IMG/VR virus record: IMGVR_UViG_3300050196_000278
Span: 1-39,712 of that record
Reading direction: 5' to 3' (one strand)
Source: a virus
Lineage: Duplodnaviria > Caudoviricetes
DNA length: 39,712 bases
The notes beneath the pieces are model-generated. The model was not told the DNA's origin. It saw nothing but the letters and a program-made list of their open reading frames with translations, and ran no database searches. Positions 1,657-37,995 of this stretch are shown here, in pieces. Position 1 is the stretch's first letter. Every line of letters starts with the position of its first letter. Position numbers and translations under genes: made by a program.

Positions 1657-1658
1657 TT

Positions 1659-11124: not shown

Positions 11125-11156
11125 TTTGCAAAAATGAGATTAAATTTTGATTAAAA

Positions 11157-13256
11157 TTAAGAAACTTTTTCTTTGTACAACGAATTTTCCCAAACTTTTA
11201 TTAATGGGGTTTTTCTTAATGGCGGCGTAATTGCTTTTTCCATCAAGCAAACGAGCAACATTAAGAATGAAACTGTAGTATCAAACTCGGTTCTATTATT
11301 AGGGTCAAATAATTTCGCATCTTCCAACAATTCCTCAAAATCAATATTATCACAATAATTTTCAAAATAAGAAATACCAGTATCAACCTGCTTGGTTAAG
11401 CTGAATGGAGTTGTTGGAAATCCTTTATACCTGTCAGCATCCTTCCTTTTTATAGGGTCTATTGTGCTTAATGGATAAGTTCCCAAATACCCAACTTTGC
11501 CCCTTTCTCTAAAATAAGAAAGGTAATCATCACTATTGTGTTCATACCAAACAAGAAATCCAAAATATTCAGCAGCCATCATTACTTGTTCGTGTAGCTT
11601 TTCCTTTACAGCAGGTCTACCATATAGATGACCTATTGCTTTTCCTGTGTTATTTGGGTTTAAAATGTCGAATTTAAGCCCAATCCACGCAGATGCTTTT
11701 GACCCAAATTTTCCACCCTGACTATTGCTATATCCATCAACGGCTATTGCTCCAATGTCTGTTCTTGCAGGCTTCCTCACTCCATTAATAATAGTCGTTT
11801 TATTTTCCTGCCCATCAGGAGGGAAAGCAATTAATCGCCAATGAAAATTATTTTTAGCAGGGTCAACATCTTTTAATACTACCTCCCATTTATCTGCTGC
11901 AGCATCATATTCTCTTTGAAAAATACATGGACGTTTGTAGATAGGGTTACTTGCTAAATACTGCTCCCTTGCGTCTATATTATTTACATTGAAAATACAT
12001 TTATCCCCGTCTGTGCTAAAAGCCTCATTAATGGTTCTAGCCTCTTTTTTTATCAGATTGGATAACGCCCTTTGGTTATGCGAAACTGCTGCCCTATCTG
12101 CTAATATTTCCTCTACCGTTTTATCTATATCGGAATACCCATAAATGTCAATGTTTCTGCCTCTATCAGCCGTCATAAAAAACCGATAAAGCCCGCTAGC
12201 TGTTCTGCCGTTACCTTTTCTTTCTAATTGGTTACTATCATTCCACAAACTCTTTGCAGCCTCTTGAATGCCATCTCTTTCAGTATCAAGTTTTTCTACT
12301 GTTGACGAGAATAATGCCTTGCCAATGATTCTGCCATTATCATCTAATAAGCAGTATTTGAATACATCCCATCTATCATAGATGTTACACTCAATTGTTT
12401 TTGCCCACTCATCGTGAAACCCTCTCTGTATTTTTTGTCCATCATAATAAATAGGGTCAGCACTTCCCCAATCTATCATTGAACCTAATTCGTCTTTGTC
12501 TAATCCATCTTCCGCCTTTTTCCCCCTTACATTTGTTTGTTGAAAACGGATTTCGGTCTTAGGTGTAATACCTAATGACATATCATATTCTGGTCTAAAA
12601 AATCTTGGCAGTTTTTTAAATGGGCTTATTACTGCTTTTGCAAAAACTTTTTTAGCATCTCCCCCTGTTTTAGACTGAATAGCCCCGTTGGTCATTTTTG
12701 TCCTAGTAGTATATTCATACAAAAATAAGCCTCCTCGAAAAGTCTTCCCAAACCTTCGTTTAGTAATTTCGAGCATACCAAAACAATCAGGGTCTTCTAT
12801 ACAATACTGTAAAAAATAAAAATAATCTAAGTCGGGGAATCTAAATCTTGGATAGCCAACGTCAATCTGCCACCACTGCATAAACATATAATGGCTTCCA
12901 GTTAGGTATACAGGTTCTCCAATTTTCGTTAATGGATTATAGTTCAAAAACCAAAACCCATTTAACCTTCTATCCCACTCTTGCTTTTGATACTCGTTTA
13001 AATTATCATCATAAAAATCAGGCTCGCCTTCTTTTTGTTTTTTCTCGTAATCCGACCACCTTTTTACTGTTTCTTTATACCAATGCGGAAGCGGTTTTCT
13101 TTCCCAATACTGCTCTCTTGGGTCTATCGACCTACTATAAACACCCCTGTACTCTAGCTTTTTTGAAACTACATTGTACACGTATCCGACGGGGGGAATC
13201 CAAATGGATAATCCTTGAATATCTATACAATTTCCACCTTCTATTGAGCTATACAT
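11157..13256 (-). CDS. terL: Terminase large subunit
   Basis: Walker A TKRRFGKT, Walker B GFHDEWAK, nuclease AIAVDGY and EFDTTVS; 699 aa. Confidence 0.9.
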   Translation of the reverse strand: MYSSIEGGNCIDIQGLSIWIPPVGYVYNVVSKKLEYRGVYSRSIDPREQYWERKPLPHWYKETVKRWSDYEKKQKEGEPDFYDDNLNEYQKQEWDRRLNGFWFLNYNPLTKIGEPVYLTGSHYMFMQWWQIDVGYPRFRFPDLDYFYFLQYCIEDPDCFGMLEITKRRFGKTFRGGLFLYEYTTRTKMTNGAIQSKTGGDAKKVFAKAVISPFKKLPRFFRPEYDMSLGITPKTEIRFQQTNVRGKKAEDGLDKDELGSMIDWGSADPIYYDGQKIQRGFHDEWAKTIECNIYDRWDVFKYCLLDDNGRIIGKALFSSTVEKLDTERDGIQEAAKSLWNDSNQLERKGNGRTASGLYRFFMTADRGRNIDIYGYSDIDKTVEEILADRAAVSHNQRALSNLIKKEARTINEAFSTDGDKCIFNVNNIDAREQYLASNPIYKRPCIFQREYDAAADKWEVVLKDVDPAKNNFHWRLIAFPPDGQENKTTIINGVRKPARTDIGAIAVDGYSNSQGGKFGSKASAWIGLKFDILNPNNTGKAIGHLYGRPAVKEKLHEQVMMAAEYFGFLVWYEHNSDDYLSYFRERGKVGYLGTYPLSTIDPIKRKDADRYKGFPTTPFSLTKQVDTGISYFENYCDNIDFEELLEDAKLFDPNNRTEFDTTVSFLMLLVCLMEKAITPPLRKTPLIKVWENSLYKEKVS

Positions 13257-15489: not shown

Positions 15490-16278
15490 TTAAATGTCTA
15501 TTCCGTTTATGCAATCTCTTTCTTTTGCCCACTCTTGTATAAATATTGGCAATGACTCTTTAATGGGTATCAAATCTTCTTTTATAAACCCCATTGAGAA
15601 AGGTTCAAATCCATTGGGCATGTTATCCACCCTGCTATCATGGGTCATTAAGAATATTTCATCCTGAATGTGCTTTATCTTTTCTATATGCTTGTGCTTG
15701 TCTCTTACAAATCCCATATGGTAAATTCTAATCTTATCAATGTATTCGGTAGATGCGGGACAAAGGATGCTTTCCGCATCATCAATAGACTGATATTTAG
15801 TTTTGCAAAGTCTAATCACTTCTGTGCTTACTGGCTTTCTTTCTTGTGACACATTCAATTGGTGCTGGCTATTTCCCCAAAGATTTATTCGTTCTAAATA
15901 AAACCCCTCTTCGTTTCTTTCAATTGCTTCACGAATTGCAGAGAAGCATGATTCATGGATTATTTCGTCCCCTTGAAGATTTATTTGCCATTCATAGCCC
16001 AATGCTTTCGCATTATTAATCGCAATGTTTGTAAAGTAGGCTAATTTCTCCCTGCCCTTAATTGCATCCCATTCTGACTTGTGCCTAAAAAGAACAATTG
16101 TTTTAGTATCAAAATCCATCATCTTCATTAATGATTCTTGAGTGCCATCATCTGAACCGCAATCAACTACTATTACAGCATCGCATAATGCCTTTAAGCA
16201 ATTCAACGCCTCCTTATAACAATAGTCCTGTGAAATTCCATTATAAACGATTAATGTACCTGCAATTCGGTTGCCCAT
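15490..16278 (-). CDS. Family 2-like glycosyltransferase
   Basis: VIVVDCGSDDGT, LQGDE (DxD-like), IYHMGFVR. Confidence 0.85.
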   Translation of the reverse strand: MGNRIAGTLIVYNGISQDYCYKEALNCLKALCDAVIVVDCGSDDGTQESLMKMMDFDTKTIVLFRHKSEWDAIKGREKLAYFTNIAINNAKALGYEWQINLQGDEIIHESCFSAIREAIERNEEGFYLERINLWGNSQHQLNVSQERKPVSTEVIRLCKTKYQSIDDAESILCPASTEYIDKIRIYHMGFVRDKHKHIEKIKHIQDEIFLMTHDSRVDNMPNGFEPFSMGFIKEDLIPIKESLPIFIQEWAKERDCINGIDI

Positions 16279-16850
16279 GATTTTTGTTTTAGTTCGTTTT
16301 TTATACGCTCAAATTCTTGTTCTGTATTATGATTTATGGCTTTCATAAAAAACCATGCTCCTATATTAAGTGTTGGATGATATTTTGGGAACACTATTTT
16401 AATCCACGAATTATCAAACTCATCTGGCTTCCAAATGCTTCTATGGCTTTCAGGATTTGTATCATCTGCATTTGTCATCATCCATTCATCCAATGGTGTA
16501 AAGAAAACCATTCTGTCGCAATGCCTAAACATAGAGCTTATTTGCTTCCACCCATATTCTTTTGTAACATGCTCTATTTGGTCAAGAGAATAAATAACAT
16601 CATAGCATTTCGTGTCTTTTAAAAACTGTAAAGCATCTGCCTGAATAAATAGCTGCTGTTCTTCTTGAAAGTCCAATTCCCTTGGCAAAATATCTATGTA
16701 AGTTCTTTGCTCAAATCCTAATCTTGGCGTAAACGGACTGTGATTACAACCAATATCCAAAAATGAATTTCTTTTTGCTCCTGTTAAGGCATTTAAGCAA
16801 TCTAAGTAAACTATATCGTTTCCGTGTATGTTCTCAAATACTATTTTCAT
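16251..16850 (-). CDS. Class I SAM-dependent methyltransferase
   Basis: FLDIGCN, QADAL, YDVIYSLDQIEH. Confidence 0.8.
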   Translation of the reverse strand: MKIVFENIHGNDIVYLDCLNALTGAKRNSFLDIGCNHSPFTPRLGFEQRTYIDILPRELDFQEEQQLFIQADALQFLKDTKCYDVIYSLDQIEHVTKEYGWKQISSMFRHCDRMVFFTPLDEWMMTNADDTNPESHRSIWKPDEFDNSWIKIVFPKYHPTLNIGAWFFMKAINHNTEQEFERIKNELKQKSWATELQVH

Positions 16851-18268
16851 TGTGGCAATAATTTATTTACAGCGTTTAAGATTTGGAAGTGAGTAAAAGT
16901 ACAACAAGGCGGCATAAATTCATTATACTCACAAACTTTTCCTGTGGTTGAGTTTTCTATCTCATGGTAACAGCGTCTATTGTTACCACTTGGGCATTCA
17001 TTTTGCACTACTTGTATTTTTGAGAAATCAGAATACCTCTTAGTCAAATCAACCGACCCTGCCATAATTACTGCTGGCACTCCTAATGCTACTGCGATAT
17101 GATTTGGCGATGAATCAATTCCAATCAACACATCACACCCCTTAATTATAAACATAAGCATTTGCAATGTAGGCGTATTTAAAAACGGAGCTACTATTTT
17201 ATTTGCCCTACGACCTATTTGAAACACTTGGTAGCCTAATCTTTGATAGTAATTGACAATAAAAGACCAATCAACTCCATGTTCGTTTCTATATTCAAGA
17301 CCCACTTCATCAACATGAATCAAAATATATTTACTAAAAAGCATTTCATCTTTTGTTGCAGCAATACTTAATTTCGAATTTTGCATTTTCCCGTCCATAA
17401 TCCCTGCAAATTCAAAATAAGATTGCAATACGGGCTGCATTGGTTTTGCTTCATACGTACCGTCAAAGTTAATAATTCTTTCGGGAATTATTTTAGGGTT
17501 CATTTCTGAAATGTGCTTGATATGATAATGATGCTGAAAAAATATAGCCATAAATCGTGGCAACGTATTCAAGACCACTTGATAGCCTTTATTATGAAAA
17601 TAATCTACAACAGGCATTAACATGATTAAATCACCAAGAGCGTCAGTCCTTTGTAAAATTATATGCGGTTTAAATGGCTCGTGGAAGTGTCCATGGAATC
17701 CAAGTGTTTTTTGTATTGGCTCATTTAGTTCAAAAGAAAAGTTATCCGTAACTTCTTCTGTGGCAAATTTTATAGCATGTTCTTTTTCAAGATATTCTCC
17801 ATAAAGTCTACAAATAGCATCATCTTCCTGTTCTGTACATTTTATAAAATCATCTGTACCTAATGCTATTTGTAGTTTTTTTGACCTTAAAGAAAATCCG
17901 CCGTTACCAACATTTCTTTCCCCTTTACCATATGTCCATTTTGCCCCAATATAGTCGTAATCAAGAAAGCTACCAATCCAACTGTCACCATTCAAAATAT
18001 ACCCGTCATGTTGCACTACTAGGACAAAATCGGTATAAAAATATTTGTATAAGTCCTTCATTATAAATCGACTATACTCATTTTTTGATTTTATAGCGTC
18101 AATTTTGATTACTTCGATACCATCGACTACCAAATCAATATCAGTCAATAAAAGGCATCTTGCAGGAGTAACTTGTTGTAAACACTTTTTTAAAGCATTT
18201 ATAGCTAACCCGTAATTAACCGTATCTACGCAAATAATTGTTACGTCTTTTATTTCTTTTGGTGTCAT
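16847..18268 (-). CDS. DUF5672-like domain fused to a GT9-like glycosyltransferase
   Basis: QHDGYILN, YDYIGAKW, VGNGGFSLRSKKL; then RTDALGDLIM and IGIDSSPNHIAVALGVP. Confidence 0.75.
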   Translation of the reverse strand: MTPKEIKDVTIICVDTVNYGLAINALKKCLQQVTPARCLLLTDIDLVVDGIEVIKIDAIKSKNEYSRFIMKDLYKYFYTDFVLVVQHDGYILNGDSWIGSFLDYDYIGAKWTYGKGERNVGNGGFSLRSKKLQIALGTDDFIKCTEQEDDAICRLYGEYLEKEHAIKFATEEVTDNFSFELNEPIQKTLGFHGHFHEPFKPHIILQRTDALGDLIMLMPVVDYFHNKGYQVVLNTLPRFMAIFFQHHYHIKHISEMNPKIIPERIINFDGTYEAKPMQPVLQSYFEFAGIMDGKMQNSKLSIAATKDEMLFSKYILIHVDEVGLEYRNEHGVDWSFIVNYYQRLGYQVFQIGRRANKIVAPFLNTPTLQMLMFIIKGCDVLIGIDSSPNHIAVALGVPAVIMAGSVDLTKRYSDFSKIQVVQNECPSGNNRRCYHEIENSTTGKVCEYNEFMPPCCTFTHFQILNAVNKLLPQ

Positions 18269-18272
18269 TAGG

Positions 18273-18839
18273 TTACTTGAATTTAGTTTGTGCTATTTTA
18301 TTTTTATTTTTGGCTATCCAAAATGGGTCATAAATCAATTCGAATTTCCATCCAAAATATTTTCTTGACGGGCTTTTCATGCTCCTTTGTATGCCTTGAT
18401 ATGGAATTTTCAAAAATCTAGCCATTTCTCTTATCCCCTCCATTTCTAAAACTATCGACAACCCATCCTTATAAGCAATGACCGTTTTCCTTCTGTCTTT
18501 ATTAACCGCACCCTTTCTACCAAGACTAATAACGGAATGGATGCTTTGCTCTTTCATGGTAGCCCACTCTAAGTTTTCAACCCTATTGTCATTTCTAATC
18601 CCGTTTTTATGGTTTATAGTTGGCTTGTTTTCTGCATTTTTAATAAATGCAACGCCAACTAAGCGATGGACTAGGTGTCTATGCCATTTACCATCTATAT
18701 CTAAACTTAGATGAGGATATCCGCCTTGATTTAAGGGGGTTTTAAGTATGCCGCTTTTAGAAGACCACACCCTACCCATACTTGATACAAAGTATTTATT
18801 TCCAAAAGAACTCTCACCTATTTCTTTCCAATATTCCAT
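18273..18839 (-). CDS. HNH homing endonuclease (NUMOD4-type N-terminus)
   Basis: EYWKEI..YFVSSMGRV, VHRLV..AFI, INHKNGIRNDNRVENLEW; ATG at 18839 preferred over 18884. Confidence 0.88.
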   Translation of the reverse strand: MEYWKEIGESSFGNKYFVSSMGRVWSSKSGILKTPLNQGGYPHLSLDIDGKWHRHLVHRLVGVAFIKNAENKPTINHKNGIRNDNRVENLEWATMKEQSIHSVISLGRKGAVNKDRRKTVIAYKDGLSIVLEMEGIREMARFLKIPYQGIQRSMKSPSRKYFGWKFELIYDPFWIAKNKNKIAQTKFK

Positions 18840-18954
18840 AAAAAAATAAACCCCCGAACACAGAAGCCTTATCATCGTTACCAAGGAGGTAGGATGCGAC
18901 TGTGACGGGGATTAAAAAGTTCGTAATTATACATGATAACAATGATAAGGAACA

Positions 18955-18963: not shown

Positions 18964-19539
18964 TTAAATTGTAGCATTTGCGTACTCAATAAATAAATCT
19001 AAATACTTCTTTTTTTCGGTAATCAAATGACTAAACTTATGAAACCTTGCTACCGCTACGGGAAATATTTTCATTTGGCTAAAAGTGTCTAGCCGATGAG
19101 TTTTGTTATGGCATCCACAGCGATTGCCTACTACTACAAAATTCCATTCATTTGCCGCTACCGATGGGAACCCACTATTACCACTTTTAGGGAAAATATG
19201 CCCCGTTGAATTGCGATAATCAGCTTTACTTATAAAGTCGCCACATTCCCAACATTTAGGATTTTTAGATATTACCTTTTCTGCATTTTTCCAAAAACAT
19301 GCCATTCTATCTACTACTATATCATTTGCTTCATTATCCATTTCTTTTGAAGGTATAAATGATTGTGGCAATGAAGATTTATTTTTTTGCTGTTCGGCTA
19401 TTGATGCTTTCTGCTGTTGCTTTTCTTTTTCAGCACGTTTAGCACTCACCTTTGGTATTGTGTATATTTTCTTTGGCTTCAATGGTCTATCATTATTGAT
19501 ATGATTCAATCTGCTTCTTTGGTAGTCTGTTAATGCCAT
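18964..19539 (-). CDS. NinG/Rap-like or HNH-like nuclease
   Basis: CWECG, GHIFPK, EWN...RCGCHNKTH. Confidence 0.6.
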   Translation of the reverse strand: MALTDYQRSRLNHINNDRPLKPKKIYTIPKVSAKRAEKEKQQQKASIAEQQKNKSSLPQSFIPSKEMDNEANDIVVDRMACFWKNAEKVISKNPKCWECGDFISKADYRNSTGHIFPKSGNSGFPSVAANEWNFVVVGNRCGCHNKTHRLDTFSQMKIFPVAVARFHKFSHLITEKKKYLDLFIEYANATI

Positions 19540-19603
19540 TTATTTTTTTATTTTGGTGTACAAGTTGTAGCCTTAGTTGCGGCAATCGGAGAGTTGGCTG
19601 CTA

Positions 19604-19933
19604 TTAATCCCAAAATCCATGAATTGCATAGAAATTTAAGCTAGAAACTCCAAAATCAGTTTTACCACAAAAACCAGTACCTGTTCTACGCCAATCTATT
19701 AATTTTTTGTTTTTCATTTTTTTTAGCCTATATTGAATTTTGCGAATATTTGACCAGTAATCTTTAGTATTATTTTGTAACTCTAAACATTTTAAGCAGA
19801 CTTCGTAGAAGTCAGACATTATGTGTAAATCCCCCAATTTATTATGTTTCAAATATTCTAAAACATTATTTTCAAAACAGCAGCCAACATTTGCATTTGC
19901 TAAATTGTGGCTTGACGAATCCGCTATGTTCAT
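19604..19933 (-). CDS. Cassette 1 hypothetical protein
   Basis: Frame is open to 20083 across hairpin 1; start uncertain (ATG 19933 lies inside the hairpin). Confidence 0.55.
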   Translation of the reverse strand: MNIADSSSHNLANANVGCCFENNVLEYLKHNKLGDLHIMSDFYEVCLKCLELQNNTKDYWSNIRKIQYRLKKMKNKKLIDWRRTGTGFCGKTDFGVSSLNFYAIHGFWD

Positions 19934-20021
19934 TTGTACTACTATTAAACTGTTGAATAATTTGCTGTGAAGCTGTGGTAATTCTATTGCCCCAACTTCG
20001 CAATATGCTTTTTCGTTATGT
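19879..20021 (+). repeat. attC-like hairpin 1
   Basis: AGCAGCCAACA..GCATTTGCTAAATTGTGGC...GCCCCAACTTCGCAATATGC..TTCGTT (GTT at 20015). Confidence 0.75.
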
Positions 20022-20083
20022 GTCATATTGCCCCTTGCCACACAGCAGTTCATTAATGGGCTTGACGTTCCGAATTTCAACAT

Positions 20084-20461
20084 TTACCACGGCAGTATTC
20101 CATCTGATATTCTTTGTTGCTCTGCGGCGGCATCTTCAAAAGAAATCTGAAAAGTCGGTTCAACGAGTAATTGCTCCATGTAAGAAGGTTCTTCGTAGTC
20201 GCCACGGAAGTATTTTAGCAGAAATTCAAAATGCCAATGTCCTTCTTTATCAACTCCTTCAAATGGGAAGTCTCCTTGTTTTATTTCATCGGCAACCATA
20301 TCACTATCGAAATGTCCTCCCATTACATAAAGGCATTCTTTTAGTTCTGCATCTACATAATATTCGCCATCTTCATTTTTCTTAATTGGAACATCGGCAA
20401 TCGCATAGCAATATTTACTCAATGTTTCTTTGTAATCTTCGAGAAATTCTTTGTAGTCCAT
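20084..20461 (-). CDS. Cassette 2 acidic hypothetical protein
   Basis: 125 aa ORF wholly between hairpins 1 and 2. Confidence 0.7.
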   Translation of the reverse strand: MDYKEFLEDYKETLSKYCYAIADVPIKKNEDGEYYVDAELKECLYVMGGHFDSDMVADEIKQGDFPFEGVDKEGHWHFEFLLKYFRGDYEEPSYMEQLLVEPTFQISFEDAAAEQQRISDGILPW

Positions 20462-20517
20462 ACGTTTTATTTTAACAGTTTAAAAATTTGACCATGCTCC
20501 GCAGCTTCGCAATACGA

Positions 20518-20631
20518 ACACATAACAAGGGGTTTTATGCAATAAGGGCGGAAGTACAAAGCCGGGCGATTATAAAGCCTGGCATTAAATCAGTCATTGC
20601 CCTTACTGCATAAAGCCCCGAACCGTTAGTG
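20518..20631 (+). repeat. attC-like hairpin 2
   Basis: ACACATAACA.GGGGTTTTATGCAATAAGGGC...GCCCTTACTGCATAAAGCCCC.AACCGTT (GTT at 20625). Confidence 0.85.
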
Positions 20632-20835
20632 GCAATGAACAGACACCGTTATTTTAAGGTCGTTTATACAAGTTTGAATTGCTACAACTTGGTCGTGGTC
20701 ACTTGGTATCCCGTATATTATACGCTCCCACCTATCTATTAATTCGTTTAATTTTTGTGTTGGGACATCACTGCCCCTAACACGGGGTTTTGCGTCATTT
20801 GGGCTGATGAATTGCCTTTCAACATTTGTACTCAT
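20626..20835 (-). CDS. Cassette 3 hypothetical protein
   Basis: Only ATGs lie inside hairpin 3; the stop TAA overlaps the GTTA core at 20626-20628. Confidence 0.55.
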   Translation of the reverse strand: MSTNVERQFISPNDAKPRVRGSDVPTQKLNELIDRWERIIYGIPSDHDQVVAIQTCINDLKITVSVHCH

Positions 20836-20908
20836 ATCATCTTTAGTTTTTATTATGAACATTAGTTTTTCAAATTCCAAAACAACCGCAAAGCCCTGTT
20901 CGTTAGCG
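20772..20908 (+). repeat. attC-like hairpin 3
   Basis: TGCCCCTAACACGGGGTTTTGCG...CGCAAAGCCCTGTTCGTT (GTT at 20902). Confidence 0.8.
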
Positions 20909-20909
20909 G

Positions 20910-21182
20910 TCAGGCTAAAACGACATCCTGAATTTCAGCTTTAACTTTTGCCCAATAGACAATATATTCTTGACCTTCTTTGCGTTCATGTATCCAATCA
21001 AGTTTTCTGCCTTGTCTAATTTCTTGCAATATTTCATCTACTACTATGGTAGCAACTTTCTTTGCTTGTGATAAAATCTGTTCAGGGTATTCGTGGTTGG
21101 TAAGCATTGAACTACCAACATAACCGTGAACGTAATCTTTGAACTTTTCTACAAGTTCTTGTGCTTTTTCTTTTTCCGACAT
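20910..21182 (-). CDS. Cassette 4 hypothetical phage protein
   Basis: 90 aa; MSEKEKAQELVEKF...AKKVATIVVDEIL...YWAKVKAEI. Confidence 0.75.
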   Translation of the reverse strand: MSEKEKAQELVEKFKDYVHGYVGSSMLTNHEYPEQILSQAKKVATIVVDEILQEIRQGRKLDWIHERKEGQEYIVYWAKVKAEIQDVVLA

Positions 21183-21226
21183 TTTACTGTTATTTAAAAT
21201 TAATACCCTTTCGAAACTAAGCCCGA

Positions 21227-21359
21227 ACCGCTAACAAGGGTTTGTAGCAATAGGGGCAGAAGTGCAAATATTGAGCTGTGTACTTCTAATCAGCTTTTGT
21301 AGTGCATTGAACAGTAATGCTAAAAATCCCCTACTGCTACAAGCCCTGAACCGTTACCT
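21227..21359 (+). repeat. attC-like hairpin 4
   Basis: ACCGCTAACAAGGGTTTGTAGCAATAGGGG...CCCCTACTGCTACAAGCCCTGAACCGTT (GTT at 21353). Confidence 0.88.
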
Positions 21360-21364
21360 GCCAT

Positions 21365-21502
21365 TTAAGACCACCATTTATAGACACCACCACACTTTTC
21401 TTCAAAATAATTATCAATATCTTCATCTGTAGGGTCATTGTTAAAATGAACCTCATGTGTTTCGCCATCTTTTACCATTAGGAAATAAACTACTTTTTTC
21501 AT
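21365..21502 (-). CDS. Cassette 5 small protein (45 aa, not in ORF track)
   Basis: Manual translation MKKVVYFLMVKDGETHEVHFNNDPTDEDIDNYFEEKCGGVYKWWS; A-rich leader; fills the unit. Confidence 0.7.
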   Translation of the reverse strand: MKKVVYFLMVKDGETHEVHFNNDPTDEDIDNYFEEKCGGVYKWWS

Positions 21503-21533
21503 TTTTATTTAATTTTTAATTGTGAAATAAAAC

Positions 21534-21735
21534 GGCAGCTAACATTGGGTTTTGTGCAAGTGTGGCCTGACGTAGTAACAATCAGCAGTAGCCACTCTAC
21601 TGTACTTCAGTTCGGGGCTTGACGAATAAAGCCCAGCTTTGGTTTCTTAATATTTAACTTTAGCAAAAAGCCATGCACCGGTAGCGGGCGGACGGAATGC
21701 TAATTCCACACCTGCACAAAGCCCGGCCGTTACCT
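21534..21735 (+). repeat. attC-like hairpin 5 (longest, about 200 bp)
   Basis: GGCAGCTAACATTGGGTTTTGTGCAAGTGTGG...CCACACCTGCACAAAGCCCGGCCGTT (GTT at 21729). Confidence 0.85.
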
Positions 21736-21736
21736 G

Positions 21737-22021
21737 CTACTTGGTGGACACGGGCTGCTTCTCAAAGTTGTATAAGTTAATAAAACAACCTTCAGTTCCA
21801 ATATTTACAGTTGTTACTTCAAGCATTTTTATTTTTGTTTTCTCGAAACAAAAAATACACTTATTGCCATTTTCACAATTAACTTCTAATGTTTCATTCC
21901 ATACTCTTATTCCAGTATTCTCATTTTTATGATTAAAGACAAAACGATTTGGATAATTACCTCTTATTGTATAACCAATGTTTGTTAAACATTTCATTAA
22001 ATCAGTGTGTGTTAATAACAT
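21737..22021 (-). CDS. Cassette 6 hypothetical protein
   Basis: 94 aa ORF filling the unit. Confidence 0.7.
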   Translation of the reverse strand: MLLTHTDLMKCLTNIGYTIRGNYPNRFVFNHKNENTGIRVWNETLEVNCENGNKCIFCFEKTKIKMLEVTTVNIGTEGCFINLYNFEKQPVSTK

Positions 22022-22063
22022 TTTATTTTATTTTGTGTCCACAAAGTCCTTTGGACTTCAAGC

Positions 22064-22203
22064 AGCAGGTAACATAAGTATTGCTGCAATTGTGGCTTGA
22101 CGTTAATAATTAGGCAGTAGTTAAATTCGGCTCATCTTAGAACCTTGCTTCAACAGTTGTGCTGCCAATTCCACAACTGCAAAGCAATACGTATTCGTGC
22201 TAT
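22064..22203 (+). repeat. attC-like hairpin 6 (right core altered to GTG)
   Basis: AGCAGGTAACATAAGTATTGCTGCAATTGTGG...CCACAACTGCAAAGCAATACGTATTCGTG (22197). Confidence 0.75.
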
Positions 22204-22600
22204 GCTGTGCGACTTCAAAATTTAAAAGTGATTTGAGCCTTTCTACTATCTGTTTTTTATCAAATTCCATTATCTCAATTGTAAAAGCAAATTGCTTAAA
22301 TGATAAGTAGCACTCGTAAATTATTTTATTTGCTACCAAAAAATTTGCACAAGAAAGATATTGAGTAGCCGTAATTTTATTATCACTTATTAACTTTTCC
22401 AAAATATCGCCAATACAATAGACATAATTTTTAACATACTTTTTTTGGCTTTTAATGGCTTCTTTAATTATCATTGGTAGGGTATCTTTTACAATATCCA
22501 TATCTATATCAGTGTGACAATTTTTACAAATATCTTGATGAACATATCCAAGCCATTCTAACTTCTTATGTTCTTCACAAATAGGACAATAATCTTTCAT
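22121..22600 (-). CDS. Cassette 7 protein with N-terminal zinc ribbon
   Basis: CPIC...CKNC; C-terminus reads into hairpin 6. Confidence 0.65.
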   Translation of the reverse strand: MKDYCPICEEHKKLEWLGYVHQDICKNCHTDIDMDIVKDTLPMIIKEAIKSQKKYVKNYVYCIGDILEKLISDNKITATQYLSCANFLVANKIIYECYLSFKQFAFTIEIMEFDKKQIVERLKSLLNFEVAQHSTNTYCFAVVELAAQLLKQGSKMSRI

Positions 22601-22629
22601 TTTGAATAAATTTTACACCCCGAAAAAAA

Positions 22630-22768
22630 GCACAGCATATAACAGGGGTTTTGCAATATGGTGGCAGTAGTACTAATATTGAGCATCGTACTACTATGAT
22701 GCTTCGGTGGTTAATTGAACATTTGAGCCTTGAATGCCACCACATCGCAAAGCCCTAATCCGTTATAT
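22630..22768 (+). repeat. attC-like hairpin 7
   Basis: GCACAGCATATAACAGGGGTTTTGCAATATGGTGGCA...TGCCACCACATCGCAAAGCCCTAATCCGTT (GTT at 22762). Confidence 0.85.
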
Positions 22769-22777
22769 TAGGCACAA

Positions 22778-23074
22778 TTAAGCGTCAAAGAAAGTCTCGA
22801 AGTATTTATCAGGTATGATTAACCCTTGTTCTCGACAGTGTTCCATAAATTGAGAAACAACATTTGTGTTATGCTCAGCCTGTTTTTGTTCTGACATAGA
22901 ATTATAATCATCACAAAGAACTAAATCAAGCCTATCGCCAATCCTACAACCTGCTTTTGAATGCTCCCCACTTGGCTCTTTTTCAATTCCCGCTTCATCC
23001 AGTCTTTGATGAACGTAGTCTTTAAACGCTTGTAGTTTGTTTACTTTTTCTTGTAATTCATTATTCGTTTCCAT
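22778..23074 (-). CDS. Cassette 8 hypothetical phage protein
   Basis: 98 aa; KLQAFKDYVHQRLDEAGI...GCRIGDRLD. Confidence 0.75.
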   Translation of the reverse strand: METNNELQEKVNKLQAFKDYVHQRLDEAGIEKEPSGEHSKAGCRIGDRLDLVLCDDYNSMSEQKQAEHNTNVVSQFMEHCREQGLIIPDKYFETFFDA

Positions 23075-23083
23075 AATTTAAAC

Positions 23084-23219
23084 TGCACCCAACATGGTTA
23101 TTGGCAAAAGCGGGGCTGAACGCTGTATGCTCAACAGGAGTACATAATTTATCTTTAGAATAAAGGCTGAACGGTTGTACTCCGAATATCCCGCCTTCGC
23201 CAATAACTGAACGTTGGCT
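23084..23219 (+). repeat. attC-like hairpin 8
   Basis: TGCACCCAACATGGTTATTGGCAAAAGCGGG...CCCGCCTTCGCCAATAACTGAACGTT (GTT at 23213). Confidence 0.85.
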
Positions 23220-23235
23220 GTAATTGCTACATCGT

Positions 23236-23451
23236 TTAACTTGAATGAATAAATCTATCTGGGTCGGTTTGCTCAAGCAAGCCAATTGACAGGCTATAAT
23301 ATGTATCACACAAATCTCTTAAAGAATGAGTTGTATTATTAGCTTTTGCATTTGACCATCTATCTGCAAAATCTCTTAGAATGTTTTTTATTTCAGTAGG
23401 CGTTAGTTTTATCATTACGCTTTTATCATTATTTAAATCAATGTTTGACAT
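23236..23451 (-). CDS. Cassette 9 hypothetical protein
   Basis: ORF from ATG 23451 (MSNIDL) filling the unit. Confidence 0.65.
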   Translation of the reverse strand: MSNIDLNNDKSVMIKLTPTEIKNILRDFADRWSNAKANNTTHSLRDLCDTYYSLSIGLLEQTDPDRFIHSS

Positions 23452-23490
23452 ATATTTTATTTTCAAAGTTTTATAATTTTACTGCAACTA

Positions 23491-23623
23491 ACAGCCAACA
23501 TAAGGTTTGGCAGAAGTCGGGGAACGAGAATATGTTCTCAACTTCACCTACAATTTAGCTGTGTAGGTAGTTCAGCACCAGCCTTTCAAATACCGCCCGA
23601 CCGCCAAGCCTATTTCGTTGGCT
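23491..23623 (+). repeat. attC-like hairpin 9
   Basis: ACAGCCAACATAAGGTTTGGCAGAAGTCGGG...CCCGACCGCCAAGCCTATTTCGTT (GTT at 23617). Confidence 0.82.
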
Positions 23624-23624
23624 G

Positions 23625-23879
23625 CTACTCCAATCCATCTTCAATTATTCCAATAATGGCATTATTTAACTCAATAGCGATACCTTTTTCACTTCCAAAT
23701 ACCAATTCTGCACGTAATATCTCAAAGGTTGTTTCGTCTTGGCTTATTTGATGAAGTCCATGACACTCTTCAATAGTAGGAGGGTGCTTAGTTGTTATTC
23801 TATTATACGTTACCAATAATTCAGCTTTAATATCCCCTATTGGTATTGATTTGGTTATGTTGTATTCTGTATTTTTCAT
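23625..23879 (-). CDS. Hypothetical protein
   Basis: 84 aa ORF; stop 8 nt from the hairpin 9 core. Confidence 0.65.
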   Translation of the reverse strand: MKNTEYNITKSIPIGDIKAELLVTYNRITTKHPPTIEECHGLHQISQDETTFEILRAELVFGSEKGIAIELNNAIIGIIEDGLE

Positions 23880-23889
23880 GGTTGATTTA

Positions 23890-24321
23890 TTAGTTGCAAC
23901 AAAAGTGAACGGTTAGGCAGAAAACTAAGAAAACTAAACGATACCAACTACACCCTTTCTCATTATTATTCCCCATTGTATTTTGTTTTTCAAGTGATTT
24001 AAAATAGTCCTCTAATGTCCCAATACCAAACCTTTGTCTTTCTTCGTCGGTCAATTTCCTCTTTTCGCCACACATAGAGCATTGCATTTCGGACGCTTCT
24101 TTTGGTGCCGTGTGGGTTAATTCGTAATCGTGTTCACCATCATTCAAACAATCGGCAATATCCGCAGAATAAGAATAAATAATAGACGTAGTAAACACAA
24201 ATGATTTTCTACACTCGCTACACTCCATTTGATGATTAACATCTTGCTCGCACCCAAATCCATCATCGTGATTTACGTCTTGCCAATGACCACAATAAGG
24301 GCATTCTATATCTTTACTCAT
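23890..24321 (-). CDS. Multi-zinc-ribbon protein
   Basis: CPYC, CSEC, CLNDGEH, CSMC. Confidence 0.7.
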   Translation of the reverse strand: MSKDIECPYCGHWQDVNHDDGFGCEQDVNHQMECSECRKSFVFTTSIIYSYSADIADCLNDGEHDYELTHTAPKEASEMQCSMCGEKRKLTDEERQRFGIGTLEDYFKSLEKQNTMGNNNEKGCSWYRLVFLVFCLTVHFCCN

Positions 24322-26690: not shown

Positions 26691-26924
26691 ATGGAAAATT
26701 TAGTAAAATGCGATTCAGAAGATATAGTAGTCGCTAAGATTTTTTTAAAGTTAGAGGAATTAGAGAGACCGTTAAGATGGTTGTCTAATAAATGTGGATT
26801 TAATTACAACTCATTTTATGCTATAATGAGGCAAAGAACCATGAGGCTTACCGATGCCTACCTTGTAAAGATTAATGAAGTATTACTCACCGATTATTGT
26901 GTAGAAAATGGCGGACAATTATAA
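26691..26924 (+). CDS. Cro/XRE-like HTH regulator
   Basis: RPLRWLSNKCGFNYNSFYAIM...LVKINEVL; located at a divergent promoter. Confidence 0.65.
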   Translation: MENLVKCDSEDIVVAKIFLKLEELERPLRWLSNKCGFNYNSFYAIMRQRTMRLTDAYLVKINEVLLTDYCVENGGQL

Positions 26925-27285
26925 CAGCCAATTAAAAGACAAAAGGTGGCAAATAAAGAAAGGTGGAATATTGTTAAGGGATAATTACACTTGCCAAAAT
27001 AGAAAATGCACAACTCCTACTAATCCGTTAGAGGTTCACCACGTTATGTATTTGGGTTATGATTTAAAGGCTTGGGATTATCCTGATGATATGTTGCTTA
27101 CACTTTGCGATACCTGCCATGCTGCTGAAAGTTGGCGACCAATATTAGAAAGGCACTTAGCCACAACCCTAAAGATGAAAGGATTTCTCATGTCCGACCT
27201 ATTAGCACTTTCATCTAAAATAGATTCGGATACCGAGTTTACAAAAACATTGCTTAACACTTTAAGAAATATGCAGAATGGCTAA
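26908..27285 (+). CDS. HNH endonuclease
   Basis: LLRDNYTCQ..C, LEVHH, LLTLCDTCH. Confidence 0.82.
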   Translation: MADNYNSQLKDKRWQIKKGGILLRDNYTCQNRKCTTPTNPLEVHHVMYLGYDLKAWDYPDDMLLTLCDTCHAAESWRPILERHLATTLKMKGFLMSDLLALSSKIDSDTEFTKTLLNTLRNMQNG

Positions 27286-28329: not shown

Positions 28330-30384
28330 ATGGATTTTTCAGTACTAAACGAAATTGAAGGATTACAATTTATTCCTGTAAACGATAAGAAACAACCATT
28401 GGTAAAGGGATGGCAGGATACAGTTACAAAGCATAATTTATCAAATTGCTATGGAGTTGGATTGGTTTGCGGTAAGCCATCGGGCAATGTCGAGGCATTG
28501 GATTTTGACCTGAAATATGACCTATCTGGCAATTTGTTTGAGAGATATAAGCAATTGATAAATGGTTATGAAAAAGGATTGTTGAATAAATTGGTAGTTC
28601 AGAAAACAAAAAACGGCGGCTTTCATATCATCTACCGTTGCCCAAAAATCGAAGGCAATTTGAAACTTGCAAATCGCTCAACTACCGAAGATGAAAAGAA
28701 AAAAACCTTTGACGATACGTACGTTGCCGAAAGTTTGAAAGGAAAGGATGATACCGAAGCTAAAAAGGTAGCAAAAAAAACTGCTGACAACGATAAGGTT
28801 AGAGTGTTAATCGAAACTCGTGGGCTAGGTGGTCAAATCGTTATTTCTCCTACGGATGGATACAAAATGATATTTGGAGATATTCAATCCATCACAGAAA
28901 TTTCAGAAGCCGAAAGGGATATGTTGGTTGGCGTTGCCCGTCAATTTAACGAATATCTTGAAGAAGCGATTACATACAACGCTAAGGATATTCCAAAAAC
29001 GGCAGGAATAAGCCCATTTGAGGACTTTGATAGCAGGGGTGATGTAATTGCTTTGCTTGAAAGAAATGGATGGAAAATTGTAAAGCAAAAGGGGCAAAAG
29101 ACTTTATTGCTACGACCAGGGCAAAGCACAGCCGAAAGTAGCGGTAATTATGACCATGCAAGAAAGTGGTTTAGCGTTTTTACTACAAGTACGGAATTTG
29201 AGCCACAAAGGGCTTATCGACCATATGCTGTTTTTGCCATTTTAGAGTGTAATAAAAACTTTTCAGAAGCATCAAAAAAACTACTTGATTTAGGGTATGG
29301 TGAAAGACAAGAAACCAAGAAAGAAGAAAAGCCAAAAGCACCAAGTACAAGAGTAATTCAATCGAGAATTAATCCTGATGATAACGATTTGTCTTTTTTA
29401 GCTGATGGGAATGATTACGGGGCGTACTTACAGAGCGTTAGGGATGGTACGCTTGAAATGGGCAAGACAACAGGATTTCCAAGTTTAGACGAACATTTTT
29501 TGCACAAGCAAGGGAACTTGGTAATGACAAACGGTGTAGACAATAGCGGAAAAAGCGTTGTAACTTGGTATTTGTATTTGCTTGCTGCTATGTATCATGG
29601 ATGGAAAGGTATTATCTTTTCAAGTGAAAATACTCTTGGTGCTTTCATGCGAAAAATGATACAATTTTATTGGGGGAAACCGCTTTACGGGCAGTATAAA
29701 ATGAATGATTTGGAATATAAAATTGCCAAAGATTTCATTGAAAGCCACTTCAAACTTATACGCTCACAAGAGGACTTGTATAATTACAAGGACATTATGA
29801 ATATGGTAAAAAAAACAAGAAATAAGTTTGGAGATTTTAATTTTGGAATGATTGACCCTTACAATTCCTTAAAGATGGATTTAAGTGGATTTAGTAAGTT
29901 AAGCGGACACGATTACCATTATGAAGCCCTAAGTGAAATAAAAGCTTACGGGCAGAAAAACGATTTTAGTTGGATAGTAAATAACCATGCGGTAACAAGT
30001 GCTTTACGGGCAAAAGATGGAGAAAAGAAATATCCACTTGCTCCAAAAAAAGAAGATACAGAGGGTGGCGGAAAGTTCCCAAATAAAGCCGATGATTTTT
30101 TAACTGTTCACCGTATTACAGGACACCCTACTGATTGGATGGTTACAGAAATTCATGTCCGAAAAATAAAGGATACGGAAACAGGTGGACGACCAACCCC
30201 GTTTGATGTTCCAGTAAAGTTAGAAATGTATAAAGGGCAATGCGGATTTATCGAAAGACTTGAAGAAGGGGGATACCCCGTTGACCCTGTGGTAAAATGG
30301 CACTTACAAAACGAACCTCAACAACAAGTAATAACTAACTTAATAAATGGTAGTTGGGATGATGGATTAGAAAAAGGATTTTAA
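28330..30384 (+). CDS. Prim-Pol primase fused to SF4 (DnaB-like) helicase
   Basis: KQPLVKGWQ, ALDFD, TKNGGFHIIYR, IETRGLGGQIVISP; Walker A GVDNSGKS, MIDPYN, VRKIKD. Confidence 0.87.
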   Translation: MDFSVLNEIEGLQFIPVNDKKQPLVKGWQDTVTKHNLSNCYGVGLVCGKPSGNVEALDFDLKYDLSGNLFERYKQLINGYEKGLLNKLVVQKTKNGGFHIIYRCPKIEGNLKLANRSTTEDEKKKTFDDTYVAESLKGKDDTEAKKVAKKTADNDKVRVLIETRGLGGQIVISPTDGYKMIFGDIQSITEISEAERDMLVGVARQFNEYLEEAITYNAKDIPKTAGISPFEDFDSRGDVIALLERNGWKIVKQKGQKTLLLRPGQSTAESSGNYDHARKWFSVFTTSTEFEPQRAYRPYAVFAILECNKNFSEASKKLLDLGYGERQETKKEEKPKAPSTRVIQSRINPDDNDLSFLADGNDYGAYLQSVRDGTLEMGKTTGFPSLDEHFLHKQGNLVMTNGVDNSGKSVVTWYLYLLAAMYHGWKGIIFSSENTLGAFMRKMIQFYWGKPLYGQYKMNDLEYKIAKDFIESHFKLIRSQEDLYNYKDIMNMVKKTRNKFGDFNFGMIDPYNSLKMDLSGFSKLSGHDYHYEALSEIKAYGQKNDFSWIVNNHAVTSALRAKDGEKKYPLAPKKEDTEGGGKFPNKADDFLTVHRITGHPTDWMVTEIHVRKIKDTETGGRPTPFDVPVKLEMYKGQCGFIERLEEGGYPVDPVVKWHLQNEPQQQVITNLINGSWDDGLEKGF

Positions 30385-31617: not shown

Positions 31618-32034
31618 ATGCCAATAAAAGATAAATCAAAATACCCTGCAAATTGGATTAGCGAAATACGTCCTGCAATACTTGAAAGGGCTGGTAATTG
31701 CTGTGAAATATGTAATGTGCCAAATAAAGAACTTATTTGCAGAGGTAGTATAAGCGGTATAGAGGTTTGGCAAAATGACAACGGGGAATGCTTCAACCTA
31801 ACTGATGGTCAATATTTAACTTCTACATATTGGGGTGATATTTCAAAAAAGCAAGCTAAACTAGTACGAATAATTTTGACCGTTGCACATCTTGACCACG
31901 ATACTAACAACAACGATTATTCAAACTTAAAAGCATTGTGCCAATTACACCACCTTCGACATGATGTTGAGTTCCATAAGAAAAATTCGACTGAAACTAG
32001 AATTAAAAAGAAACAACTTCAAACATTATTCTAA
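31618..32034 (+). CDS. HNH-family protein
   Basis: YPANW..IRPAILERAGNCCEIC, LTVAHLDH...NLKALCQLHHLRHD. Confidence 0.82.
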   Translation: MPIKDKSKYPANWISEIRPAILERAGNCCEICNVPNKELICRGSISGIEVWQNDNGECFNLTDGQYLTSTYWGDISKKQAKLVRIILTVAHLDHDTNNNDYSNLKALCQLHHLRHDVEFHKKNSTETRIKKKQLQTLF

Positions 32035-32346
32035 ATGCCTAAACTAACCACATCCGAAAGGTTTACAAAGTTCCATGAAAAGAACCCACACGTTTTTGTT
32101 TTATTTGAAACTTATGCTTTGCAGTTAATTCATGCAGGGAAAAAGAAGTTCGGAAGCAAGATGATATATGAGAGAATAAGATGGGATAGCGAGATAAAAA
32201 CAACTGGCAGCAAATTTCACGATGAAAAAGGAGAGGAAGTAAGAGTAAAACTATCCAATGATTTTACGCCTTATTATTCTCGAATGTTTGCAGAAAAGTA
32301 TCCTAATTACGCTAGTTGCTTTGCTTTTAAACCTATAAAAAGCTAG
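32035..32346 (+). CDS. Hypothetical phage protein
   Basis: FHEKNPHVF...IYERIRW...KLSNDFTPYYSR. Confidence 0.7.
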   Translation: MPKLTTSERFTKFHEKNPHVFVLFETYALQLIHAGKKKFGSKMIYERIRWDSEIKTTGSKFHDEKGEEVRVKLSNDFTPYYSRMFAEKYPNYASCFAFKPIKS

Positions 32347-32351
32347 ATTAA

Positions 32352-32765
32352 ATGGCAAAAAGAGTTCTCACTCCCGAAGAAACATTGTTTATAAAGGAAC
32401 ACCCAAACTATACCATAAGGCAACTTGCTTTCTGTTTCGACATGTCCTCATCTTGGTGTTGGAGAGAAAAAAACAGCGTATTTGGCAGAAAATATAAAAA
32501 AATGGGGCGATCTTATACCGCTAAAACAAGGGGGGAAGCTAAATTATTTGTTGACAACGGGCTAGTGTCTACTTTTAATTATAAAAGCATCCCGTTTTTA
32601 TCAAAGCAATTATCATTTTTAACCAGGCAAGTTTCCAATATAGCTAAAAAGAAAAGCGGGCTTACTTATTTCATAGTTTCCCCAAATACGGATAACGCAA
32701 CCCCGCTTACCGACAAAGAAATAGATTTTTATAAATTTAAAAACAAAACAAAATGCACGCAATAG
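32352..32765 (+). CDS. Hypothetical protein, possible N-terminal HTH
   Basis: 137 aa; YTIRQLAFCF. Confidence 0.55.
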   Translation: MAKRVLTPEETLFIKEHPNYTIRQLAFCFDMSSSWCWREKNSVFGRKYKKMGRSYTAKTRGEAKLFVDNGLVSTFNYKSIPFLSKQLSFLTRQVSNIAKKKSGLTYFIVSPNTDNATPLTDKEIDFYKFKNKTKCTQ

Positions 32766-36668: not shown

Positions 36669-37161
36669 GCACTATTGTAGCACACTAAAAAATAAATTTG
36701 GTTATTTTTTTGAACTAACCAAATTTATCCCCCCCTTTCCCTCCCAATCCTCCCTGATAAACGGGCAGTCCAAATAGCAAGCAAATTAACCCAAAACCCA
36801 AAATAAGCCCCAAATCCTCCTCCCTTACATCTACATATCCTATAGCTAGTTAAACAGCTTACAAATGCCCAAACAATACAGGTTACAATACAAAATGAGC
36901 AGCAAACGCAATAGTATAACGCATACCAGGCAGCAAATACAATAGTTTCACGCCTACATCATTCGCAATGCCTAACCAATACCACAAGCCAAAGGCAATT
37001 TCAAAAACGTAAACGAGTGCCACCCTATCTGTAAAAGTCATCACCCCTTTACGGGCATCGACCTGTGAGTAGTGGGGGAGGCTTAAGAAAGCGTAAGCGG
37101 ACTAACTTTTTTTTGTTTTATTGGAGTAATGTGTTTAGGTTTGCTTTTTAAAATAAAATTT

Positions 37162-37995
37162 ATGGAAAAAGAAATTTGGTTGCCGATAGTGAAGCCGATG
37201 GATTTAGTCGGAAAGTATGAAATAAGTAGTATGGGTAGATTGAAACGATGTGGCTACCTTATGAAAAGTAAAAAATGGAAGCCTGAATTAATTTTGTCTC
37301 TGAGCGTAAAAACTAAGTATTTGAAGTTTGCTTTTAAGTACAATAAAAAAAACTACAACATATCCATTCATAGATTAGTATGTTTGGCATTCCATGAAAA
37401 TAATTGCAACAAGCCGCAAGTGAACCATAAAAACGGGATTAAGCATGATAATCGTGCAGTAAATTTAGAATGGTGTGACCAATCTGAAAATATAAGGCAT
37501 GCTCAATCTATTGGTTTAATTAAAAAAGCGGTAATAAAGCAAAAGGTGCCAAGGAAAATAAGAGAGAAAGGGCTGAATACAAAAAAAATAATTGACACGA
37601 GCAATGGCGTCATTTACGATTCGATTGATATTTTGTGTAAAGAGAAGGGGTTATCGTCTAATAATATTCAAAGGCAAATATCTGGAGCTAGATGGTGCTA
37701 TGTACCTTATAGGTATATTGGACAAGAGGATAAGGTAAAAATACCGCCACCGCCAATTCCAAAAGTAGAAAAAATTAAAGAAATAAAAGTCAGACCACCT
37801 AAAAAGGTGTATATACCTCACCCATTGGAACGAAAGAAGATGGCAATGTATGATGTGAGCGGCAACTTAGTTAAACTATTCGATTCAAGTACCGAAGCTG
37901 CCGAGCATGTAAAATCTAATCCTGATACATTTAGAAGGGCAGTCAGAAGAAGCCCAAGAAGTTTTACGAAGGGATATGTTTTTAAATACCTTTAG
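37162..37995 (+). CDS. HNH homing endonuclease (NUMOD4-HNH-NUMOD1-like)
   Basis: EIWLPI..YEISSMGR, IHRLV..AF, VNHKNGIKHDNRAVNLEW, C-terminal FDSSTEAAE...TKGYVFKY. Confidence 0.88.
   Translation: MEKEIWLPIVKPMDLVGKYEISSMGRLKRCGYLMKSKKWKPELILSLSVKTKYLKFAFKYNKKNYNISIHRLVCLAFHENNCNKPQVNHKNGIKHDNRAVNLEWCDQSENIRHAQSIGLIKKAVIKQKVPRKIREKGLNTKKIIDTSNGVIYDSIDILCKEKGLSSNNIQRQISGARWCYVPYRYIGQEDKVKIPPPPIPKVEKIKEIKVRPPKKVYIPHPLERKKMAMYDVSGNLVKLFDSSTEAAEHVKSNPDTFRRAVRRSPRSFTKGYVFKYL

Follow-up and report, generated by a model that had tools for sequence, protein, structure and literature searches.

The virus record IMGVR_UViG_3300050196_000278 (Duplodnaviria; Caudoviricetes) was analysed over its full length of 39,712 nucleotides (nt), which is here called the window. 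From position 19593 onwards it carries nine small genes that alternate with nine long hairpins. We consider it probable that this stretch is the orphan cassette array of an integron-like system of Bacteroidota, with folded hairpins that a short tyrosine recombinase of the Xer-like kind, not encoded in the record, would cut at G|TT. The array works like an integron cassette array. It is, however, neither a classical integron nor do its hairpins belong to the attC family, because the integrase insertion, the asymmetry of the hairpin and, in phages, the polarity of the genes differ. That the units of the window themselves recombine is what their sequences suggest.

Unit ends and hairpin structure

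Nine hairpin sites of 104-191 bp, measured from the first A of AAC to the last T of GTT, alternate with nine one-gene units. The sites all start with YAACA, and they end with CGTT except for site 6, which ends with CGTG. This pattern had been described in the initial annotation, and its coordinates were verified in the sequence. Hairpins and units are in register if each cassette is taken as TT-gene-AAC-hairpin-G; the leftmost core, at 19593, has no hairpin before it.

The most telling feature is the complementarity of the two ends of one unit, as it would result from the opening of a circular cassette. All eight complementary pairs that had been listed beforehand were verified; a further unit, 22762-23093, which had gone unmentioned, has non-complementary ends. 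Over the 7 nt beyond the core, units 1-9 score 7, 6, 6, 6, 6, 7, 6, 1 and 6, versus 3.4 for non-matching pairs, and none of 200,000 permutations reached the total. The outer stems behave likewise: 10.0 of 12 positions pair with their own arm, 7.0 with other arms, and again 0 of 200,000 permutations reached the total. The two ends of a single site match less (2, 2, 4, 3, 5, 4, 4, 5 and 6 of 7 for sites 1-9). A crude scan of the region yielded seven end-pairs, six real and one spurious, against a mean of 0.06 and a maximum of 4 in 1000 Markov simulations.

It had further been claimed that pairing in the stems is kept while the sequence varies. A covariance model was built from eight sites of the window and searched in 38 fetched loci that had been picked as likely arrays or comparisons. 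Within the window it recovered the ninth site and nothing beyond the nine; the 38 loci gave another 82 matches. In an alignment of 89 distinct sites, fitted to the model, 92% of the cells pair and 16 of 16 pairs show two-sided changes, which bears the claim out. The covariation score is 0.77 versus 0.18 in shuffled and 0.06-0.10 in slid controls. The hairpins of the window are mutually only 40-66% identical; a fold z of −3 or below on either strand is reached by only six of the nine (40 shuffles each).

The occurrence of such sites in Bacteroidota had been expected, and they are indeed found there. The model matches in 40 of 101 genomes of the phylum of a Chitinophagales genome (Bacteroidota) and in 0 of 51 control genomes, from the phylum of a Lachnospiraceae genome. 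A genome titled Calothrix has seven matches, which reflect either contamination of the bin or a wider range. The model missed the short sites of the Polaribacter phage P12002L, and it gave no match in the class 2 integron region L192. A first motif scan, with at least 121 loci, was discarded as unspecific, since complete units were present in only five of them.

The fine structure was read from 158 sites picked for a strong, ungapped stem, a selection by which a bulged minority would be missed. The pair adjoining the core is A/C on the plus strand (G.T on the minus strand) in 152 of them, and of 150 sites folded, 130 fold lower on the minus strand. The left arm pairs throughout positions 6-13 with no bulge, and the GTT arm has 2-4 surplus bases. 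The short left and longer right spacer, already noted in the initial annotation, thus stand up to measurement.

Recurrence and probable movement of units

The region had been proposed to be a shufflable library of small genes, and two of its units speak in favour of this. The unit of cassette 4 recurs in the array L122 at 92.5% identity and with other neighbours; high identity begins at GTT, and the last 17 nt up to AACA are also common to both. The unit of cassette 2 recurs at 82.7% in the array L149, from GTT to AAC, again beside other neighbours. Because these two units occur in arrays of other phages with the same boundaries, they probably represent cassettes that can be swapped in an integron-like system.

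The hairpins have their own history. L149 keeps the right hairpin arms of cassette 2 (identity 0.85; background 0.54 ± 0.10), not the left ones (0.38). Hairpin 4 of the window is 91% identical to one in the recombinase-linked locus L175, where it heads another gene, and 81% to one in L161; in both it lies beside other sequences. Since this is so, and since L122 keeps neither hairpin of the cassette-4 unit, gene and hairpin appear to be re-paired over long times. L122 had suggested that each hairpin might be a fully independent module; this was given up as the main mode, since in near-identical phages four of four moved blocks keep their right hairpin. The phage of L122 also encodes a 400-amino-acid (aa) integrase, far from its array.

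Homologs of the cargo also occur as plain genes. Of 25 fetched loci with a cassette-4 homolog, three were repeats of the same contigs and were omitted; among the remaining 22, six are flanked by a site on one or both sides, and no site was detected at 16, of which some lie on short contigs. A cassette-2 homolog (79%) in L150 lies outside any cassette. As the cassette-4 homologs are mostly site-less and the L150 homolog stands alone, the comparison suggests that phage cassettes are built from ordinary phage genes. For cassette 8 there are 78 protein relatives, taken without their context.

Related phages go further. Twelve loci of one phage lineage have a common docking sequence, ACATATAATAG|TTA, that is followed by four different first cassettes; these diverge directly behind GTTA. 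L156 and L157 contain four blocks that are 99.7-100% identical and differ in order; each block starts and ends at CGTTA, each keeps its right-hand hairpin when moved, and the right flank at which the two arrays end is the same. These loci are direct evidence, from sequence comparison, that units are inserted and reordered at G|TT together with the right-hand hairpin, and they agree with the earlier prediction that relatives would show gain and reordering at this core.

The recombinase linked to related arrays

The likely catalyst is seen in relatives. G002, a complete 76-kb phage with a cassette-4 homolog in its array, has a recombinase of 277 aa at the head of that array. Among 39 loci of this enzyme family, sites lie upstream of the gene in 28 and downstream in none; in six of the 11 site-less loci the DNA upstream is shorter than 420 nt, and roughly one third of the 39 come from a single lineage. 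The enzyme stays below every curated cut-off: it scores 164.5 versus 265 for the integron integrase TIGR02249, and its best NCBIfam match is the XerA-like NF040815 with 198 bits (cut-off 220). Seven of seven aligned array-linked recombinases are devoid of about 28 plus 12 residues that are present in IntI2, a region that we take to be the position of the I2 helix.

Bacterial homologs with 36-45% identity were found in all five array-bearing genomes tested, in four of them within 1-12 kb of site clusters, with the caveat that housekeeping Xer proteins can score alike. The bacterial recombinase gene is divergent from or co-directional with the sites (G015:C2 versus G047:C1, G018:C1 and G048:C38). 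Because of co-location and shared hairpins, we infer that an enzyme of the 277-aa type would act on the sites of the window.

Ends of the array

The array head, 19553-19595 on the plus strand, is a putative docking site, equivalent to attI, that ends with G|TT at 19593. Its G|TT is separated by 53 nt from the start codon that comes next, a distance that measures 49-53 nt at 16 of 19 loci of the recombinase. The gene next to it is HNH-like, not a recombinase; the recombinase gene may have been replaced. The element 19558-19595 contains two short palindromes and three GTT motifs like those of cassette heads, perhaps residues of earlier events; it occurs once in the window, and relatives of its motif were not found in viral contigs.

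Variation was sought in the contigs of one public run that holds the stretch and is possibly its source; such contigs drop rare variants. Among the runs listed as containing the stretch there is none of RNA. A 43-nt piece, 19553-19595, has a depth of 49.6, and a 31-nt piece, consisting of 19566-19595 plus one non-matching letter, a depth of 40, whereas the window's own path has a depth of 18. In our reading the path forks immediately behind the GTT, at 19595. At the right end, position 23624 is connected to a different hairpin arm in a contig of 113 nt (depth 11).

Polarity of the genes

For the analysis of polarity, AAC...GTT was taken as the top strand and the longest open reading frame of each unit was scored. 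The genes are antisense to their sites in 52 of 53 distinct phage units. In bacteria the reverse holds: 50 of 52 units, from 16 regions of 10 genomes picked from the best model matches, are sense. All cassette genes of the window are antisense. Two independent sets agree: of the units in viral loci that the motif alone had picked out, 7 of 8 are antisense, as are 4 of 4 in P12002L. Phage cassettes are thus mirror images, in polarity, of the bacterial ones examined. By convention an attC site lies downstream of its gene. The bacterial units conform to this arrangement; those of the window and of the other phages do not.

In consequence of the antisense orientation, the hairpin precedes the start of the gene and would sometimes supply its start codon. 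The frame enters the hairpin in 23 of 52 phage units, and in nine the only ATG lies within it. Cassette 3 of the window takes its ATG from the hairpin; cassette 1 may do so. Among the sense cassettes of the bacterial locus L208 (G047:C1), an antisense, methyltransferase-like one is found at 10676-11399 (reverse strand numbering), its frame starting in the hairpin. It may be a sign of exchange between phage and bacterial cassette pools.

A possible mechanism

These data can be assembled into the following scheme. A cassette would be TT-gene-AAC-hairpin-G on the plus strand, with both ends paired in its circular form, and the folded minus strand would be the substrate. Cutting at G|TT would lead to excision, insertion and reordering of units. 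New cassettes would enter at 19593, i.e., at the far end of the leftward gene run of the phage. The enzyme might be supplied by the host or by the unassembled part of the phage genome. The hairpin would come before the start of the gene and at times provide the ATG. Finally, the phage cassettes would be made from ordinary phage genes, with hairpin and gene being re-paired over longer times.

The initial annotation had spoken of a distinct, Bacteroidota-type system. This view is supported and can be extended by two aspects: the linked enzyme is Xer-like, not an IntI, and is absent from the contig, and the genes are inverted relative to the bacterial arrays.

Relation to integrons and other known elements

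With integrons, be they of class 1 or 2 or sedentary chromosomal ones, all built of IntI, attI and attC, the array shares cassettes of one gene each, hairpin sites whose cores are AAC and GTT, a crossover that is likely at G|TT, and structure conserved over sequence; in related arrays the insertion site also lies just upstream of a tyrosine recombinase gene. Unlike a complete integron, it has no integrase gene beside it on a contig that is 38% complete, and the linked enzyme of 277 aa is devoid of the two insertions of IntI2. The I2 insertion is specific to IntI, according to the accessible part of PMC7790495.

The sites resemble attC in their inverted R'' and R' cores, their imperfect palindrome and the better folding of the bottom strand. 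They differ in that the surplus unpaired bases are on the GTT arm. In a classical attC the extrahelical bases belong to the R''-L'' arm, and the central spacer is unpaired on both sides, as far as the accessible text of PMC2727003 goes. The linked enzyme is like the Xer family (XerA/XerD-like) in its best match, NF040815, yet it remains under every curated cut-off and sits at the head of cassette arrays. In Bacteroidetes proper, only Salinibacter ruber is named for a complete integron in the accessible part of the IntegronFinder 2.0 survey (PMC9024848); the frequency of the present sites in Bacteroidota genomes contrasts with this near-absence. Flavo-1 (RF01705), a repeated structured RNA hairpin of Bacteroidetes (PMC2864571, accessible part), is likewise a multi-copy structured element of the same phylum, but the window sites do not match its model.

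Being devoid of a recombinase, the nine sites of the window work like an attC site cluster without an integron integrase (CALIN). CALINs of phages, that of the Polaribacter phage P12002L included, have been published by Qi et al. 2023 (PMC9892861). They, too, are recombinase-less clusters of hairpin-bounded small genes, and they were treated as ordinary attC sites; in the accessible part of that paper, neither a site family of Bacteroidota nor an Xer-like partner nor a mirror polarity is described. Of six sites, P12002L_attC1 was the only one without a verified IntI1 junction (same source). This site maps to 30005-30055 of the P12002L record and has the architecture of the window sites, with a score of 11.5, just below threshold. 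The scan revealed seven further such sites on the same strand and one on the other, the latter probably by chance. In this cultured phage (L191), which would lend itself readily to experiments, seven sites surround a DNA methyltransferase gene and small genes at 32224-32694 and 38036-40948. A description of the system as such was not found in the open-licence literature of PMC and bioRxiv, subscription journals not being covered by this search.

Weighing the alternatives

A number of observations weigh against the interpretation as an orphan cassette array. No match to PF00589, the tyrosine recombinase family, was seen on the contig at E ≤ 1, although one has to keep its completeness of 38% in mind. 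The head site is devoid of the ACATA-type consensus of the recombinase-linked docking sites. Relatives of the phage backbone were not found, and hence no empty site was seen. The link to the recombinase is one of co-location only, with many of the recombinase loci from one lineage. The fork at 19595 fits other first cassettes, but also extra copies of the 43-bp element in unassembled parts of the genome, given depths of about 3 × 17 and a second upstream context with a depth of 16.7. The variant junction at the right end is 3 nt shorter than that of the window, i.e., not a clean swap at G|TT. The contigs of this one, possibly source, run contain no cassette-skipping joint or circle. L122 has arm identities of just 0.41 and 0.56 to the two hairpins of cassette 4, which would not be expected of a fixed cassette. 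In the array itself, complementary ends are found in eight of nine units, unit 22762-23093 scoring 1 of 7, and two sites are damaged, site 1 by decay of its stem and site 6 by its GTG core.

Several of these points are shared by the best of the alternatives, that the array is a fossil, or is shuffled by homologous recombination between similar hairpins, with no site-specific enzyme acting now. The missing recombinase and docking consensus, the damage in sites 1 and 6, the unpaired unit 8 and the re-pairing of hairpin and gene in L122 and L175 are all compatible with it. Yet the window hairpins resemble one another so little (the 40-66% mentioned) that efficient homologous exchange is not to be expected; the breakpoints in relatives fall on a 3-bp core, and the source run forks at both ends of the array. 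We therefore regard this explanation as unlikely, though it may describe the present state of the array even if its origin was site-specific.

Still less probable is a classical CALIN, in which ordinary attC cassettes from a bacterial integron were moved by IntI. The same AAC and GTT cores, a G adjoining AAC on the bottom strand, and published precedents in phages (PMC9892861, accessible part) would suit it, as would the size of eight of the nine sites, which is within the attC range of 57-142 nt given in the accessible part of PMC2727003. The unpaired bases, however, are on the GTT instead of the R''-L'' arm, the linked enzyme has no IntI insertion and scores 164.5 against an integrase cut-off of 265, the genes are inverted, and P12002L_attC1, the one published site of this architecture, showed no verified junction with IntI1.

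Regulatory RNA hairpins, terminators or palindromes inserted between genes, like repetitive extragenic palindromes (REP) or miniature inverted-repeat transposable elements (MITE), would account for stable hairpins between co-directional genes and for many copies in Bacteroidota genomes, but they are hardly credible, since complementarity joins the ends of units (6-7 of 7) and not those of sites, Rfam gave no match at gathering score, Flavo-1 included (for the latter none at E ≤ 5), and units move as blocks that are reordered at G|TT. The orphan cassette array thus remains our preferred interpretation.

The individual sites and cassettes

All sites are on the plus strand. Site 1 (19886-20017) has a decayed stem with 7 of 12 positions paired and a fold z of −0.6/−1.8. 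Sites 2 (20524-20627), 3 (20779-20904), 4 (21233-21355), 7 (22641-22764), 8 (23091-23215) and 9 (23497-23619) are among the nine matched by the covariance model; site 4 is the one with the counterpart in L175, and at site 9 a second genotype of the source sample joins a different hairpin arm. Site 5 (21541-21731) is a long form of 191 bp that was matched at 47 bits by the model built without it. Site 6 (22071-22199), with its core mutated to GTG, is likely inactive.

The genes are all on the minus strand. Cassette 1 (19593-20014, plus) consists of the unit 19593-19888, with ends that are 10/10 complementary, and hairpin 1; its open reading frame, 19604-19933, encodes 109 aa if the ATG inside hairpin 1 is used, otherwise 37 aa from 19717. 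Cassette 2 (unit 20015-20526) encodes a protein of 125 aa of unknown function at 20084-20461. The inner ends of this unit, 20015-20090 and 20480-20526, resemble the interior of a hairpin, as though an older site had taken up the gene in its loop; they are common to L149 and absent from the non-cassette homolog in L150. Cassette 3 (unit 20625-20781) has its gene at 20626-20862, with in-frame ATGs only inside hairpin 3. The gene of cassette 4 (20910-21182, 90 aa; unit 20902-21235) belongs to PHROG 21441, function unknown, the only PHROG match of the cargo. Cassettes 5 and 6 encode 45 aa (21365-21502; unit 21353-21543) and 94 aa (21737-22021; unit 21729-22073). The gene of cassette 7 (22121-22600, 159 aa; unit 22197-22643) has a frame that extends into hairpin 6. 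Cassette 8 (gene 22778-23074, 98 aa) is the one with non-complementary unit ends (22762-23093); its head, 22762-22780, has the look of one cassette head fused onto another, 5 bases being extra, and might be the scar that an imprecise recombination left. Cassette 9 (unit 23213-23499) encodes about 71-76 aa at 23236-23466.

A decayed tenth cassette is possible at 23617-23914 (plus). It would comprise an 84-aa gene, 23625-23879 on the minus strand, for which a search found no homologs, and a collapsed site from AAC at 23898-23900 to GTT at 23912-23914. The adjacent 143-aa gene (23890-24321) reads through this collapsed site, 23898-23914, and thereby ends in a hydrophobic tail. Pfam offered no family for the nine frames of the cassettes in their initial delimitation, PADLOC no match for ten proteins, and Atlas no usable match for two.

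The phage and its neighbouring genes

The window is the whole linear virus record, with the CheckV completeness given above. It encodes a terminase, virion proteins, a primase, and GroES and GroEL, the latter two at 1378-3263. The terminase matches 87 phage records, all at less than 60% identity. Because 86 of these are named for Flavobacterium, Cellulophaga, Tenacibaculum or Maribacter, the host is likely a member of the Bacteroidota.

The array is embedded in a long stretch of minus-strand genes. At 15490-18268, two glycosyltransferase-like genes and a methyltransferase-like one follow each other; the matches are weak except for DUF5672, and the genes possibly serve the modification of DNA or virion. 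Four genes for endonucleases of the HNH/NUMOD4 type lie at 18273-18884, 26908-27285, 31618-32034 and 37129-37995. The 191-aa gene that flanks the array (18964-19539) is weakly HNH-like, and a divergent variant of it is present in the source run. Viral contigs yielded no relatives of this gene, of cassette 7 or of the 84-aa gene, and the array had no blastn match in 50,697 phage records.

What the array may mean

The window adds a recombinase-less case in which some of the units, and one hairpin, come back in other arrays. Its head site is unusual and forks at the base that had been predicted, a single sample shows signs of variation, and the cargo is without known function. It also provides a link to the published site for which IntI1 gave no verified junction, P12002L_attC1.

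More tentatively, and with somewhat less than even confidence, one may think of a second, independently evolved integron system in Bacteroidota and their phages. An Xer-like enzyme without I2 would there work on single-stranded hairpins. Phages would make their mirror cassettes from ordinary genes of their own, so that the pools of host and phage would have sites and enzyme in common yet be silent when swapped, and the present array would still be edited in nature, in trans, at a new type of docking site. If true, a widespread cassette system, common to a large phylum and its phages, would have been missed by the integron surveys. A recombinase that handles hairpins without I2 would also test the view that the acquisition of I2 enabled single-strand recombination, as it is expressed in the accessible part of PMC7790495. 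The long-standing question of how cassettes first arise would become amenable to tests, because identical kinds of gene are met in phages both plain and as cassettes, and one and the same hairpin heads different genes. The mirror polarity leads to a clear prediction on the expression of cassettes that pass from phage to host or the reverse.

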